From: Gaiellaceae bacterium
GTDB lineage: Bacteria > Actinomycetota > Thermoleophilia > Gaiellales > Gaiellaceae
NCBI GenBank assembly: GCA_035624425.1
Contig: DASPRN010000087.1
Location: forward strand, 184 to 64,183
Length of the DNA stretch: 64,000 nt
Reading direction: 5' to 3'
Shown here: positions 6,468 to 60,421 of the stretch, one piece after another
How positions within the stretch are numbered: the stretch's first letter is position 1
How the letters are laid out: each line of letters starts with the position of its first letter
Translations under genes and position numbers: made by a program
The notes under the pieces: model-generated
The model's input: only the letters and a program-made list of their open reading frames with translations
Told to the model about the DNA's origin: nothing
The model's database searches: none

Positions 6468-9035
6468 TCAGTCCTTGGCCGCGTTCCAGTCGTCGCCGGC
6501 GCCGACGTCGACCTCGAGGGGCGGGTCGAGCTCGAAGGCGCCGACCATTTCCTCGCGGACGAGCTTCTTGGCGGCCGCGATCTCCACCTCGGGCGCCTCC
6601 AGCAGCAGCTCGTCGTGCACCTGGAGGACGAGCCGCGCCGAGCGGCCCTCCGCGAGGAGCCGGTCGTGGATCGCGACCATCGCCCGCTTGATCACGTCGG
6701 CGGCCGTGCCCTGCATGACCGAGTTGACGGCCAGCCGCTCCCCGAGCGAGCGCGTCTGCCGGTTCGAGGCACGGATCTCCGGCACCGGCCTGCGGCGACC
6801 GAAGAGCGTCGTCACGTAGCCGTCGCGGGCCGCCTGCTCGATCGTCCGCTCGATGAAGTCCTGCACGTGCGGGAAGCGCGCCAGGTAGGCGTCGATGTAG
6901 GCCTGCGCCTCGTCGCGCGGGATCTCGAGGTTCTCGGAGAGCCCGAACGACGAGATCCCGTAGATGATCCCGAAGTTGACCATCTTGGCGACGTTGCGCT
7001 CGTCCTTGGTCAGCGTCGCCGGGTCCTTGCCCAGCACCTCCGCGGCGGTCGTCGTGTGGATGTCCTCGCCGCGCTCGAACGACTCCTTCAGCTTCGGCTC
7101 GCCGGAGACGTGCGCGAGGATCCGCAGCTCGACCTGCGAGTAGTCGGCCGAGATCAGCTTGTGACCCGGCTCGGCGACGAAGGCCGAACGGATCTCGCGG
7201 CCGAGCTCGGTGCGGATCGGGATCGCCTGCAGGTTCGGGTTGGTCGTCGAGAGACGACCGGTCGCCGCGACGGTCTGGTTGAACGTCGTGTGCAGGCGGC
7301 CGTCCTCGCCGAGCATCGACGGCAGCGGGCCGAGGTAGGTGTTGAGCAGCTTCGAGTACTCCCGCCACTCCTCGATCACGCCGACCAGCTCGTGCTCGCC
7401 GCGGATCGTGCGCAGGACGCGGCTGTCGGTCGAGTAGCCGGTCTTGCCCTTCCGGCCGGGCGTGAGGCCGAGCTTCTCGAACAGGATCCGCGCAACCTGC
7501 TGGGTCGAGCCGAGCATGAACTCCTCGGCGGCGAGCTCGTAGGCCTTTGCCTCGAGCTCCTCGACGCGGTCGGCGAGGCGGGCCGTGATCTCGCCCATGC
7601 GGTAGGTGTCGACCTTCACGCCGGCGTGCTCCATCGCGGTCAGGACGGCGGTGAGCGGCAGCTCGATCTCGCGGTAGAGCGACTCGGCGCCGCGCTCGCG
7701 GACGCGCTCGAGCAGCGGGTCGCGCAGGCGGAGCGTGGCCGCAGCGTGTCGGACGAGCCTCGCGGTCTCCTCCTCGGCGTCCGGGTCGGGGACGAGCTCC
7801 AGCCCGTACTCGGCCGCGAGGTCGTCGAGGTCGTACTCGGCCCGGCCCGGGTCGATCAGGTAGGCGAGGATCATCGTGTCGTCGACCGCGTCCACCACGC
7901 CGAGCGCCTTGGCGTCGTGCGCGACGAGCTCGCCCTCGAGCCGCTCCGGCCGCGGCGAGACGACGACCTCCTCCCCCGCCGCCGCCGCCGCGATCCGCTC
8001 CGCGTCCCCGGCGATCCCGGCCGTTCCCCCACCTAGTAACACTGTGTTACTAAGTTCCTCGCGCCACGGGACCTTGACGCCCGCAGGCTTGACCCTGGCG
8101 GCGGCGGGGACCGCGGCGTCGAGCTCGTCGACGCGACCGAGCAGGTTGCGGAACTCGAAGCGCCGGAACATCTCCTTCAGCTTCGAGCGGTCGGGCGGCA
8201 AGAGCACCAGCTCGGCCGGATCGCTGCCGAGCTCGAGGTCGGTCCGCATCGTCGCCAGCACCTTCGCGCCGCGCGCCTGGTCGGCGTGCTCGCGGACGGC
8301 CTTCGCGCGGGCCGGCGTCAGCTCGTCCACATGTTCGAGCACCTCTTCGAGCGACCCGTACTTCGCGATGAGCTGGCCCGCGGTCTTGTCGCCGATCCCC
8401 GGGATCCCCGGGATGTTGTCGGAGGGGTCGCCCTTGAGCGCGATGAAGTCCGGCACCTGCTCCGGCGTGATCCCCAGCCGTGCCTCCACTCGCTCCGGCG
8501 TGTAGACGTGGACGTCGGAGACGCCGCGCGGGGTCATCATCAGCGCGACGTTGTCGGTGACGAGCTGAAAGGCGTCGCGGTCGGTCGAGACGACGGTGGT
8601 CTTGATCCCTGCCTCGTCGGCCTGGTGCGCCAGCGTCGCGATCACGTCGTCCGCCTCCCAGCCCTCGAACTCCAGGTTGCGGTAGCCGAAGGCCTCGACG
8701 ATCGGCCGGAAGTACGGGAACTGCTCGCGGAGCAGGTCCGGCATCGGGCGGCGCTCGATCTTGTACGTCTCCAGCAGCTCGGTCCGGTGGACGGGCCGCG
8801 TGTCCCAGGCGACGGCGACGCCCTTCGGCCGGTAGTCGGCGAGCAGCTTGAAGAGCATGTTCGTGAAGCCGAGCAGCGCGTTCGTGGAGAAGCCCTCGCT
8901 CGTCGCCAGCTCCTCGGGCAGGGCGAAGAAGGCCCGGTAGGCGAGGTTGTTTCCGTCGACCAGGAACAGCTCGGAATCGCGCGCCGGCGCATCGTCGAGC
9001 TGCAGCTCGGCTCCGGTGAGCGTCTTCGGAGACAT
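6468..9035 (-). CDS. polA: DNA polymerase I
   Basis: 5' nuclease motif LVDGNNLAYRAFFA. Polymerase motifs DYSQVELRILAH, KMVNFGIIYG and QVHDELL. I prefer ATG 9035 (TAGACT box 7 nt upstream); the track start at 9074 remains possible. Confidence 0.93.
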   Translation of the reverse strand: MSPKTLTGAELQLDDAPARDSELFLVDGNNLAYRAFFALPEELATSEGFSTNALLGFTNMLFKLLADYRPKGVAVAWDTRPVHRTELLETYKIERRPMPDLLREQFPYFRPIVEAFGYRNLEFEGWEADDVIATLAHQADEAGIKTTVVSTDRDAFQLVTDNVALMMTPRGVSDVHVYTPERVEARLGITPEQVPDFIALKGDPSDNIPGIPGIGDKTAGQLIAKYGSLEEVLEHVDELTPARAKAVREHADQARGAKVLATMRTDLELGSDPAELVLLPPDRSKLKEMFRRFEFRNLLGRVDELDAAVPAAARVKPAGVKVPWREELSNTVLLGGGTAGIAGDAERIAAAAAGEEVVVSPRPERLEGELVAHDAKALGVVDAVDDTMILAYLIDPGRAEYDLDDLAAEYGLELVPDPDAEEETARLVRHAAATLRLRDPLLERVRERGAESLYREIELPLTAVLTAMEHAGVKVDTYRMGEITARLADRVEELEAKAYELAAEEFMLGSTQQVARILFEKLGLTPGRKGKTGYSTDSRVLRTIRGEHELVGVIEEWREYSKLLNTYLGPLPSMLGEDGRLHTTFNQTVAATGRLSTTNPNLQAIPIRTELGREIRSAFVAEPGHKLISADYSQVELRILAHVSGEPKLKESFERGEDIHTTTAAEVLGKDPATLTKDERNVAKMVNFGIIYGISSFGLSENLEIPRDEAQAYIDAYLARFPHVQDFIERTIEQAARDGYVTTLFGRRRPVPEIRASNRQTRSLGERLAVNSVMQGTAADVIKRAMVAIHDRLLAEGRSARLVLQVHDELLLEAPEVEIAAAKKLVREEMVGAFELDPPLEVDVGAGDDWNAAKD
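8034..8052. repeat. Perfect 19-bp palindrome TAGTAACAC-T-GTGTTACTA inside polA
   Basis: Read directly; 9+1+9 with no mismatch. Confidence 0.9.
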
Positions 9036-9042
9036 CTCTGCG

Positions 9043-9048
9043 AGTCTA
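9043..9048 (-). promoter_or_regulatory. -10-like TAGACT, 7 nt upstream of the polA ATG (leaderless)
   Basis: TAGACT-CGCAGAG-ATG, nearly the same string as the leuS-leader promoter. Confidence 0.5.
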
Positions 9049-9054
9049 CGTCCG

Positions 9055-9981
9055 ATGGCCGGCCCCAAAGTCATTGCCTTCGCCGACGAGCACCTCGACG
9101 ATGCGGCTGCCCTTCTGGCGGCCCGTCACGCCCGCCACCGGGAGGCGGAACCGCTGCTCCCGGAGCTCGGCGACCCGCTCGCCGCGTTGGAACAGGAGTG
9201 GCGCACGGAAGGCGCTTCGGGCGTGTTCGCGCCGGGTCGCGGTTACCTGATCGCTGCGCCCATCACCTTCCGCGGCATCACGTGGATGCGAAGCGGGATC
9301 GCAGGCCAGGCGATCGAGGGCGACCGGGAGGCGATGCGCGACCTCTACGCGGCCGCGGCGCAACGCTGGGTGGACGACGGCTACCGGCAGCACGCGGTCT
9401 TCCTGCCGTCACACGACACCGAGCTCGCGGACGCGTGGTTCCGGCTCTCATTTGGCGCCTCGGCCGCGATGGCGATCCGCGAGACCGGGCCGGCGGATGA
9501 GCCGTTCGGCGGCGGCGCGACGATCCGGCCGGGAACGCCGGACGACTTCGCGGTCGCGGCGCGGCTCGAGCTGGCGATGACCGAGGCGATGGAACCCTCG
9601 CCGAGCTTCTCCAATGTCGCCCCGCAGACCTACGAGGAGGTGCTCGCCGAATGGCACGAGGACGACAGCTGGGACCAGTACGAGCTGTTCGTCGCCGAGC
9701 GTGACGGCCGCGTCGTCGGGCACATCCTCCTCTACCGGCGCCCGCCGGACCTGCGGGTCCCCGAGAACAGCATCGACCTGGCGCAGGGCTCGACCGAGCC
9801 CGAGGCGCGCGGCACCGGCGTGGGCCGGGCGCTGACCGAGCACGTGCTCGCCTGGGCGCACGGGCAGGGCATCCCCGTGATGACGACGGACTGGCGCATG
9901 ACCAACCTCTGGGCCTCGCGCTTCTGGCCGAAGCGCGGCTTCCGGCGGGTGTTCCTCCGGCTCTACCGCCACATTCCGTGA
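9055..9981 (+). CDS. GNAT-family N-acetyltransferase, apparently two tandem GNAT folds
   Basis: C-terminal motif EARGTGVGRALTEHVLAWA..FWPKRGF. About 308 aa from ATG 9055. Its stop overlaps the next start as GTGA. Confidence 0.7.
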   Translation: MAGPKVIAFADEHLDDAAALLAARHARHREAEPLLPELGDPLAALEQEWRTEGASGVFAPGRGYLIAAPITFRGITWMRSGIAGQAIEGDREAMRDLYAAAAQRWVDDGYRQHAVFLPSHDTELADAWFRLSFGASAAMAIRETGPADEPFGGGATIRPGTPDDFAVAARLELAMTEAMEPSPSFSNVAPQTYEEVLAEWHEDDSWDQYELFVAERDGRVVGHILLYRRPPDLRVPENSIDLAQGSTEPEARGTGVGRALTEHVLAWAHGQGIPVMTTDWRMTNLWASRFWPKRGFRRVFLRLYRHIP

Positions 9982-19848: not shown

Positions 19849-19937
<89 letters not shown>

Positions 19938-24407: not shown

Positions 24408-24995
24408 TCAGACCTCGGGCGGCGGCTCGCCGGCCAGACCGGTGAGGTTTCGAGCGTCGACGATCACGGCGTCGACACCGGCGCGCTCGAGCTCGTCGAC
24501 CTCGTGGCGCCCCGCGGCGTTGAGCTCGGCGACGGCGAGCTTCCCGGCGGGCACGTCCGGCAACAGCTCGAGAGCACCGTCGAGCGGCCCGCCGTCGCCT
24601 TCGCCCTCGCTCGAGAGCAGCAGGATCTCGGGGTCGATCCGCTCAAGCGCCCGCTCCAGCTCCTCTTCGCTGCTGACCTCGACCACGCAATCGAGCCCGA
24701 GCGCGAGCGCCTCCCGGTGAAGCCGCTCGAGGTCGCCGTCCTCCTCGTCGAAGCCCATGGAGACCACGCAGGCATCGGCGCCGGCCTGCTCGGCGGACTC
24801 GGGAGCGCCGGGCGGCCGCCAGAGCACCGGCAGGGCGGTCACCTCCCCGAGCCCTTGGATGGGAAGGCTGACGACCAGCGCCTCGGCGCCCTGCTCCTCG
24901 GCGTCGCGCGCCGACTCGAGGTCGCCGACGAGGGCGACGAGCGAGATCCCGTCCCCTTCCGAGATCGCCTGGCTGAAGCGGCGCGCGCCGGTCAC
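24408..24995 (-). CDS. TrpC (indole-3-glycerol-phosphate synthase)-like TIM-barrel protein, catalytically degenerate
   Basis: GADACVVS..LGLDCVVEVSSEEELERALE..ILLLS..AGVDAVIV matches the IGPS beta/alpha pattern. The EvK and NNR motifs are replaced. Start uncertain: GTG 24995, TTG 25007 or GTG 25031. Confidence 0.4.
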   Translation of the reverse strand: MTGARRFSQAISEGDGISLVALVGDLESARDAEEQGAEALVVSLPIQGLGEVTALPVLWRPPGAPESAEQAGADACVVSMGFDEEDGDLERLHREALALGLDCVVEVSSEEELERALERIDPEILLLSSEGEGDGGPLDGALELLPDVPAGKLAVAELNAAGRHEVDELERAGVDAVIVDARNLTGLAGEPPPEV

Positions 24996-39299: not shown

Positions 39300-41089
<1,790 letters not shown>

Positions 41090-58098: not shown

Positions 58099-58509
58099 GT
58101 GAAGCGCACCGGTCGACGCGGATAGGTCGCCTTCGGGCTCGCTGCCTCCGCCGTCGGCTGGGCCCTGACGCTCGTCGCGGCGGCCTTCCTGGCGCCGGCG
58201 TATCAGGGCGAGGACTGCGGCCCCAGCCGCGTCTGAACGTCGTCGAGCTCGACCCTGTTCGCCGTCAACGGCTGGTGGGTTGTCGAGTTACTTGCCGGCG
58301 TCGTGCTCGTGGCGATGCTGGCCTTCTGGGGGCTGCACAGGCGCTGCGCGTCGGGAAGCCGGCGGGCGGCACAGCTTGCGACCTCCTGCACCGCAGTGCT
58401 AGCAGCGTTCACGGTCGTCACCGGCTTCTCGATCGGACTGCTCGTCCTCCCGGTGGCGGTGCTCCTGGTGGCTTCCGCGGCGCTGGTCCAGACCGCCGGA
58501 CCGACCTAG
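58099..58509 (+). pseudogene. Small 3-TM membrane protein frame interrupted by in-frame TAG (58123) and TGA (58234); the last segment may be an intact CDS
   Basis: One frame with GC-rich third positions reads MKRTGRRG*VAFGLAASAVGWALTLVAAAFLAP..PSRV*TSSSSTLFAVNGWWVVELLAGVVLVAMLAFWGL..LLVASAALV. The only canonical start for the tail is GTG 58303, in the middle of a helix. Confidence 0.35.
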
Positions 58510-58519
58510 TAACACAGTG

Positions 58520-58524
<5 letters not shown>
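58506..58524. repeat. Second copy TAGTAACAC-A-GTGTTACTT (8-bp perfect arms)
   Basis: Read directly. Contains the stop codons of both convergent genes. Confidence 0.9.

Positions 58525-60421
<1,897 letters not shown>

Follow-up and report, generated by a model that had tools for sequence, protein, structure and literature searches.

A palindrome in the polA linker of a Gaiellaceae bacterium belongs to a Gaiellales-wide family of selected sites with a candidate orphan reader protein

Why would an essential gene of a high-GC bacterium carry a perfect AT-rich palindrome spelled in some of its rarest codons? The question is raised by a stretch of 64,000 nucleotides from a Gaiellaceae bacterium (contig DASPRN010000087.1, positions 184 to 64,183, referred to here as the window), in which the gene for DNA polymerase I (polA, minus strand, 6468..9074) contains the 19-bp word TAGTAACACTGTGTTACTA at 8034-8052. 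The original prediction, made from the window alone, described this word as a flawless palindrome with nine bases on either side of a single centre (9+1+9), which the window sequence confirms. On the coding strand it reads CTT AGT AAC ACA GTG TTA CTA GGT (LSNTVLLG) and falls in the linker that joins the 5' nuclease domain to the remainder of the protein, a region said to be poorly conserved and found to vary strongly at this point across 120 polA orthologues. The share of G or C at third codon positions (GC3) is 0.90 in the window, and the codons of the site rank among its rarest: AGT makes up 1.1% of serine codons, TTA 0.15% and CTA 1.0% of leucine codons, ACA accounts for 2.6% and CTT for 4.2%. 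Given the peptide, the joint probability of the codon string is about 5e-12, which bears out the earlier impression of rare, A/T-ending codons set against a GC-ending background. We assign a probability of about 0.6 to the reading that this palindrome is one of a set of sites selected throughout the Gaiellales for a dimer of a putative orphan protein, with an architectural or insulating role.

The word is far from private to this genome. In a scan of one genome per species with the 17-mer AGTAACACNGTGTTACT, at least 116 stretches matched, and the further copies anticipated within the genome and in relatives thus exist, several of them per metagenome-assembled genome (MAG). Nearly all matches listed come from Gaiellales, Gaiellaceae or MAGs with no closer label than uncultured Actinomycetes or Actinomycetota; the exceptions among them are one contig binned to a Longimicrobiaceae MAG and three hits in low-GC DNA that are due to chance. 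Homologues of its polA assign the window itself to a Gaiellaceae MAG. The 17-mer recurs in dozens of Gaiellales MAGs, and one 813-kb contig has sites at about 104, 408, 416, 448 and 600 kb. The 122 copies listed give the consensus S-C-W-A-GTAACA-CNG-TGTTAC-T-W-G-S, with A or T as the central base in 113 of them; the general core, GTAACA-NNN-TGTTAC (pattern GTAACANNNTGTTAC), extends to about 23 bp. Around the gene of a small protein described below, the three central bases fall into the symmetric classes CNG (that of the window), AST and GWC, with a few hybrids. Because complementarity between the flanks of the listed copies stops at position 4 and the arm variants combine almost independently, we take the unit to be a symmetric duplex site of about 23 bp and not the tip of a long hairpin. 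The flanks of the small gene, about 400 kb in all, contained no extra sites, and some 900 kb of genome blocks not selected for sites contained about 7, from which we estimate 15-30 site regions per 3-Mb genome, or roughly one per 100-200 kb; the chance expectation, calculated by hand for the 15-mer at 70% GC, is about 0.01 per genome. On the sequence record, then, this is a lineage-specific and symmetric site family under selection. We found the 15- or 17-mer in no paper and nothing on Gaiella palindromes in the literature.

Some observations lie beside this picture. The Longimicrobiaceae (Gemmatimonadota) exception, L046, is a high-GC contig with an in-frame SNTVLL site and is probably a mis-binned Gaiellales contig. 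A phage origin was considered and rejected, as the small protein is absent from IMG/VR and the 17-mer occurs there almost only in unrelated low-GC contigs. Seven of these (L206, L207, L209, L211, L213, L217 and L220; GC about 0.36) hold it within a conserved context, ATAGTGGTCTGT-AGTAACACCGTGTTACT-ATGTGCAAGTTC, and L216 has it twice, 42 bp apart, inside a GGGGAGTAAC repeat; these phage copies are separate elements that share the word by chance.

Within the window, the polA site has the 15-bp core GTAACACTGTGTTAC (8036..8050, class CNG; minus-strand reading (A)GT AAC ACA GTG TTA C(TA)) and, on the flank statistics of the listed Gaiellales copies, extends to CCTAGTAACACTGTGTTACTAAG (8032..8054), with a left arm that fits the family consensus and a right arm of the common TAAG variant. 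The near-identical copy reported 50 kb away is present as TAGTAACACAGTGTTACTT, with one mismatch in 19, although its coordinates are 58507-58525, shifted by one base. Its core GTAACACAGTGTTAC (58509..58523) is again of class CNG, and the extended site CCTAGTAACACAGTGTTACTTGG (58505..58527) has the convergent gene-end placement typical of the family. It provides the stop codon TAA (58520-58522, minus strand) of a 633-aa gene (58520..60421, minus strand; translation ending in ...ALSPSK*), which, from a reading of its translation, may encode a putative thioredoxin-domain/DUF255-like protein. Towards it runs a 68-aa open reading frame (ORF) on the plus strand (58303..58509), closed by the TAG at 58507-58509 that forms the left edge of the site; the C-terminal half of this candidate gene product reads as hydrophobic.

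Both sites are single, not doublets, and they are the sole window matches to the 19-bp palindrome at up to three mismatches. Dinucleotide shuffles of the window gave 0 matches even at three mismatches, so that the chance expectation in the window is 0. The window has no further copies of the 15-bp core at one or two mismatches and a sole other match at three, an unrelated sequence at 24991, and outside the palindromes the half-site heptamer turns up a single time. The segment of lepA at 40534-40560, put forward earlier as a related copy, did not hold up: it has one half-site-like heptamer and at least four mismatches to the core. Its single GTGTTAC adjoins CCCCCCACC, which encodes, in our translation, the conserved LepA motif IPPPSGD, and the polA flank that it resembles, GGTGGGGGA, lies outside the conserved part of the palindrome motif. 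We therefore rejected it as a third copy and regard the likeness as coincidence.

Where the sites lie is as distinctive as their sequence. Gene contexts were assigned by our own local coding-frame calls from GC3 periodicity, which are crude. By these calls, 18 of 118 site regions lie clearly within ORFs and up to 24 more are ambiguous, possibly within ORFs; 23 lie between convergent genes, only 2 between divergent ones, and 18 in tandem arrangements directly after an upstream stop codon, the others having a coding signal on one side or on neither. The in-frame coding share is thus about 15-35%, and at 14 gene ends the TAA or TAG of the motif itself serves as the stop codon. An earlier, cruder ORF call gave 43 coding copies, 34 of which are read in the frame AGT AAC ACN GTG TTA CTN (SNTVLL) and 9 as VTxCY; the frame that contains TAA, which cannot be used, occurs in none of the 43. 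Coding copies are located in loops and linkers of housekeeping proteins. Pfam domain hits back two of these locations, the linker of polA and the biotin carboxylase loop that precedes GHAxE, and the flanking peptides apparently point to arginyl-tRNA synthetase (ArgRS), the CoaC-CoaB linker, SelA and a regulator segment before LGEHRLKDL as others.

About a quarter of the sites occur in pairs roughly 55 bp apart. Allowing at most one mismatch, 27 pairs have centres separated by 53-56 bp, with a peak at 55, and other pairs are spaced by 64/65, 76/77, 92, 99 and 102 bp, a series suggestive of increments of about 10.5 bp. Most doublets occupy convergent intergenic regions, many of them the entire gap between the convergent stop codons, and their partner sites are of class CNG or one-arm hybrids, never AST or GWC. 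Examples at 53-56 bp are found in L003, L004, L008, L034, L050, L059, L073, L101 and L103. The spacers of 39-41 bp are GC-rich and mutually unrelated, which indicates that doublets are not copies of one element, and show no folding excess (mean z 0.05). With this and the limited flank complementarity, a long hairpin or REPIN-type structure was rejected.

The original prediction held that the DNA word is kept against codon preference, and comparison of orthologues supports this at two loci. Among the 120 polA orthologues (86-100% identity), the SNTVLL peptide occurs in only 9, yet the site with its rare codons is kept in most. Simple motif decay, to which the variants SNTVLQ, SNSLLQ and SNKLLQ might be ascribed, was rejected once the DNA was read, as it shows intact or hybrid sites: TTAGTAACACTGTGTTACAAG of class CNG for SNTVLQ (L197), CTAAGTAACAGTCTGTTACAAGG, a perfect GWC site read AGT AAC AGT CTG TTA CAA, for SNSLLQ (L199), and the hybrid GTAACAAGCTGTTAC for SNKLLQ (L200), with AGT, TTA and CAA retained in all three. 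Ten pairwise comparisons of five polA orthologues gave 0 differences in the outer 12 core bases, compared with 19-55% difference over 118 flanking bases, which is the behaviour expected of a word that persists while the linker peptide drifts. In two of the site-free polA groups, whose DNA was read, a GC-rich stretch of 27 nt stands in place of the 36 nt of the site-bearing alleles, and the two kinds of allele are distinguished by neither a clean insertion boundary nor a target duplication.

The second locus is the loop before GHAxE in the alpha subunit of acetyl/propionyl-CoA carboxylase (the biotin carboxylase), which varies among orthologues as SNTVLL (CNG), SNSLLL (GWC), SNNLLL (AST, at least 21 times) and SNKLLL (AST), alongside decayed forms and site-free forms such as LDVEPRFE. 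The sites GTAACAACTTGTTAC in L204 and GTAACAGTCTGTTAC in L205 have almost identical flanks and so differ by a symmetric change beside the centre plus the free central base. The same loop in L203 (1299) has a CNG site in another reading frame (VTQCYL; QVTQCYLD), which implies that the site was acquired independently or that compensating indels left the DNA word intact. In L202, two CNG sites 54 bp apart (2211 and 2265) lie in the carboxylase ORF (SNTVLQ-12 aa-SNTVLL), making the protein about 14-18 aa longer than its orthologues and hinting that a second site and its spacer can be added as one unit. In both genes the site holds its position while the peptide drifts and the class switches symmetrically.

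A candidate for the reader of these sites emerged from three genome loci in which a conserved ORF of about 95 aa lies between two sites separated by 368-416 bp. The corresponding gene, encoding a protein of about 97 aa, lies outside the window, at L037 6359-6640, L112 3121-3411 and L120 4992-5285; by tblastn, the ORF is found in 6 of the 116 listed loci, each time adjoining a site. We added 80 metagenome loci chosen solely because they encode a relative of the protein, and in about 90% of the resulting 86 loci (6 genome and 80 metagenome) a site lies both upstream and downstream of the gene, at 72-88 bp before the start and 14-51 bp after the stop where enough sequence was available. The flanking genes are homologous across loci in a single-linkage tblastx comparison, a crude check that paralogous families could inflate, and the gene therefore appears to be resident; a mobile cassette was rejected on this conserved neighbourhood. 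At L120 the small gene is preceded by an SDR gene and followed by genes for a SnoaL-like protein, an NADP oxidoreductase and an acyl-CoA dehydrogenase.

The protein family comprises 1813 close hits and 412 clusters at 50% identity, and each of the best 150 among the 412 cluster representatives is a small stand-alone protein, 57-185 aa in length. Homologues are annotated as hypothetical; the name 'proteasome lid subunit RPN8/RPN11', borne by a few JGI entries, is apparently a mis-annotation. The protein has no significant match in Pfam, NCBIfam, PHROGs, PADLOC or PDB sequence profiles, no match to a secretion or competence family and, on reading, no N-terminal signal-like segment. Its AlphaFold 2 model has five helices and no beta core (pLDDT 83). 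The stretch from the upstream palindrome to the GTG start, itself conserved (for example L120 4900-5000), contains a conserved G.CAC element resembling a GTCAC/GTTAC half-site, and an A..A.T hexamer stands 7 nt ahead of the GTG; these features of the upstream DNA suggest a leaderless transcript with an auxiliary half-site near the -35 region.

The class of the site centres also ties this protein to the sites. Upstream and downstream copies of one locus are nearly always of the same class, and the class follows an amino acid of helix 3, residue 45 in its invariant PSY-x-R motif: glutamine accompanies CNG in 49 of 52 cases, whereas glutamate accompanies AST in 12 of 13 cases and GWC in 7 of 7. 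A third group of glutamate proteins has mixed centres. The pattern fits a direct read-out of the base pair beside the centre. Since the co-varying pair flanks a single base and cannot pair in a hairpin, two-fold protein recognition of duplex DNA is favoured, and symmetric half-sites that co-vary with a recognition helix, as is generic for dimeric helix-turn-helix (HTH) operators, are what we find, within the confounding by phylogeny. When the proteins are ordered by neighbour joining, the AST and GWC groups form separate clades nested among Q/CNG clades. The genome sample, which had been selected with a CNG word, contains only two GWC sites (L052 7290 and L115 200), and both come from the MAG SMAG_U13596. 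Together with doublet partners that are only CNG or hybrid, this gives indirect support for one class per genome. SMAG_U13596 carries CNG sites besides its two GWC sites and may possess two paralogous readers or a single relaxed one.

On this evidence, the sites would be double-stranded DNA recognition sites for a dimer of the small orphan HTH protein, each monomer reading one GTAACA arm and residue 45 of helix 3 (Q or E, in the PSY-x-R motif) reading the base pair beside the centre. Two dimers would cooperate when their sites share a face of the helix, as in pairs at 55, 65 and 76-77 bp, and perhaps also in the pair around the protein's own gene, whose members lie about 75 bp ahead of the start codon and 15-50 bp beyond the stop codon, some 380 bp from each other. 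Selection would keep the sites at fixed chromosomal positions where a tightly bound protein is harmless, that is, directly after stop codons, between convergent genes, and in frame within variable loops and linkers, the polA linker being one such place. The role would be chromosome organisation, bridging or the insulation of gene boundaries, not regulation of polA. We favour an architectural role because promoters are avoided, because sites are kept within essential genes, where a block to transcription would do harm, and because their number and information content resemble those of the matS, SBS, NBS and ram systems. The site family itself, its placement, conservation, class switching and phased pairs, and its linkage to the small gene are firmly shown; that the small protein binds the sites is the most likely reading, and the manner and effect of binding outlined here are inferred.

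The part of the original prediction that named a dimeric DNA-binding protein site is thus the best reading, with a small candidate protein whose residue 45 is tracked by site class, and chromosome organisation, one of the roles it offered, is now the favoured one; its operator and uptake-signal options are unlikely, for reasons given below.

Several points weigh against our preferred reading. The correlation with residue 45 is confounded by phylogeny, only 2-3 independent switches being apparent; the evidence that, within one genome, the polA site and those flanking the small gene are of one class is indirect, and the flanks fetched to test this concordance held no additional sites. The gene was not found in the window by tblastn, the Pfam hints of a winged helix are below threshold, and Foldseek comparison of the model with PDB and BFVD returned nothing significant, the best, non-significant hits being HTH domains of transposases and Orc1. 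The placement counts inherit the crudeness of the frame calls. The polA site is also lost in some lineages, as in three shorter, site-free polA groups (848-858 aa), and the 122 sites listed fall into 94 position clusters, many positions being lineage-specific. Taken with the improbability of origin by point mutation, these positions and the polA losses suggest an active copying process that goes beyond a pure binding-site model. The bias towards gene 3' ends would fit a termination function too.

Copying is at the heart of the strongest rival explanation, which we nevertheless consider unlikely: a self-propagating palindrome resembling repetitive extragenic palindromic (REP) elements, which spreads by a dedicated process and persists where it is tolerated, at gene ends and in protein loops, the small protein being its domesticated reader. 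REP elements are imperfect extragenic palindromes, present in hundreds of copies per genome, that form single-stranded DNA hairpins, and the associated RAYT protein is a Y1 HUH transposase (Pfam Y1_Tnp). The likeness to the REP/REPIN-RAYT systems of Proteobacteria is considerable, as in both a resident gene is flanked by the dispersed palindrome of its own genome, palindrome variants co-vary with the protein lineage, and singles and doublets are concentrated at gene ends and between convergent genes. The many non-orthologous positions, the frame change in L203, the gain of about 54 nt of site and spacer in L202, and our inference that an AT-rich 15-mer would very improbably arise de novo by point mutation in 70% GC DNA all speak for it. 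However, the Gaiellales protein, all-helical and HTH-like, has no HUH/Y1 transposase or other catalytic domain in Pfam, NCBIfam or PDB sequences, copies are estimated in tens rather than hundreds, and 15-35% of them are in frame within coding sequence. The palindromes are perfect and symmetric up to the centre, in the style of a double-stranded dimer site; polA alleles of 36 and 27 nt lack a clean insertion or target duplication; doublet spacers are unrelated; and the phasing by about 10.5 bp and the symmetric change beside the centre indicate a protein-binding constraint. Long-term conservation at fixed positions, with class switching, suggests selection at the level of the host.

A gene-end transcription signal, be it an RNA-hairpin terminator or a sequence-specific protein roadblock or insulator against read-through from one gene into its neighbour, above all a convergent one, with coding copies as tolerated by-products, seems to us improbable. 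Such a signal would explain why sites overlap stop codons or lie a few to about 40 nt after them, why convergent placements outnumber divergent ones by 23 to 2, why doublets fill convergent intergenic regions and why both sites around the small gene stand directly after stop codons, and the RNA can indeed fold into a stem of 10-11 bp (dG -15.6 to -17.9, z -2.3 to -2.8). An intrinsic (Rho-independent) terminator is a G+C-rich stem-loop followed by a U tract, whereas here the stem is AT-rich, no T run follows and the scan called no terminator-like site; a terminator needs structure, not an invariant sequence, and the co-varying pair beside the centre would fall in the loop. Blocking RNA polymerase would also be harmful within polA, the carboxylase and, apparently, ArgRS and CoaBC.

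Still less probable is an operator of a conventional regulon that includes polA, of a stress/SOS type or resembling the BldD box, even though the palindrome has an A/T centre, a promoter-like region of the small gene is preceded by a site and the 15-bp, odd-length core of the window fits the degenerate consensus of the Streptomyces BldD box, nTnACnC(A/T)GnGTnAn; nothing else supports a BldD link. BldD operators are degenerate boxes in promoter regions, bound by the Xre-type BldD protein, whereas the Gaiellales sites are near-exact, with no window copies at one or two core mismatches, avoid divergent promoter regions in favour of 3' ends and gene interiors, and are linked to a protein without an Xre, HTH_3 or BldD match in Pfam or NCBIfam. 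We give the least credence to a DNA uptake-type signal or a mere rare-codon translational pause at domain boundaries. Like uptake sequences (USS/DUS) and the cyanobacterial HIP1, the word is lineage-specific and exact, lies in preferred frames within variable protein parts and recurs at gene ends, and coding copies do place a cluster of rare TTA and AGT codons in linkers. USS and DUS are short oriented words found about once per kb, commonly as single copies. The Gaiellales unit is instead a full palindrome at a density 100-1000 times lower (2 sites in the 64-kb window, one region per 100-200 kb in general), isolated half-sites are essentially absent, and the candidate reader would be cytoplasmic, with no secretion or competence match. 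Against a pause, the same site is read in two frames and most copies are intergenic, so that translation cannot be the level at which they are selected.

Among known systems, the architectural reading finds its closest counterparts in matS/MatP, SBS/SlmA, NBS/Noc, ram/RacA and parS/ParB. There, too, tens of palindromic sites are served by one dedicated reader (here a candidate), sites are tolerated within genes and conserved among relatives, and there are signs of higher-order cooperation such as bridging; matS, in addition, is an odd-length palindrome with a free centre, as are the sites described here. Unlike these systems, the Gaiellales family has a different site sequence, a strong bias to gene 3' ends and a reader gene bracketed by two of its own sites, and the small protein has no Pfam or NCBIfam hit to MatP, ParB/Noc or SlmA (TetR) and no significant Foldseek match.

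Two details concern the host gene and its codons. The database polA protein P0001 starts 13 codons further in than the ORF at 6468..9074. Rfam and ARAGORN, whose sole match in the window is a tRNA-Leu(CAA) at 19849-19935, give no tRNA there for UUA, the codon that in-frame sites use.

A wider view, which we hold only tentatively, is that the family forms a previously undescribed network in which one orphan HTH reader co-evolves with a few dozen exact palindromes; the network would mark gene boundaries and positions on the chromosome, serve as a set of insulators or domain anchors and possibly have a copying mechanism of its own. A shift in the specificity of the reader would then be followed by sites across the chromosome, those in polA and the carboxylase included, and a copying mechanism could explain new sites, frame changes and doublets with their ruler of 54-55 bp.

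If the architectural reading is true, the small protein would found a new DNA-binding family with a precise recognition sequence of about 23 bp, in a lineage of soil bacteria that are very abundant yet little studied, and the sites would be a natural example of selection for a DNA word that overrides both codon usage and amino-acid choice in essential genes. Peptides such as SNTVLL, SNSLLL and SNNLLL in Gaiellales proteins would then be annotated as footprints of a DNA signal and not as protein motifs. The three symmetric classes and the Q/E45 switch would amount to a specificity code that can be tested with a few oligonucleotides. Finally, gene-end placement and phased doublets would bear on how transcription units are delimited in high-GC actinobacteria, which have few canonical terminators, and on the organisation of the actinobacterial chromosome.

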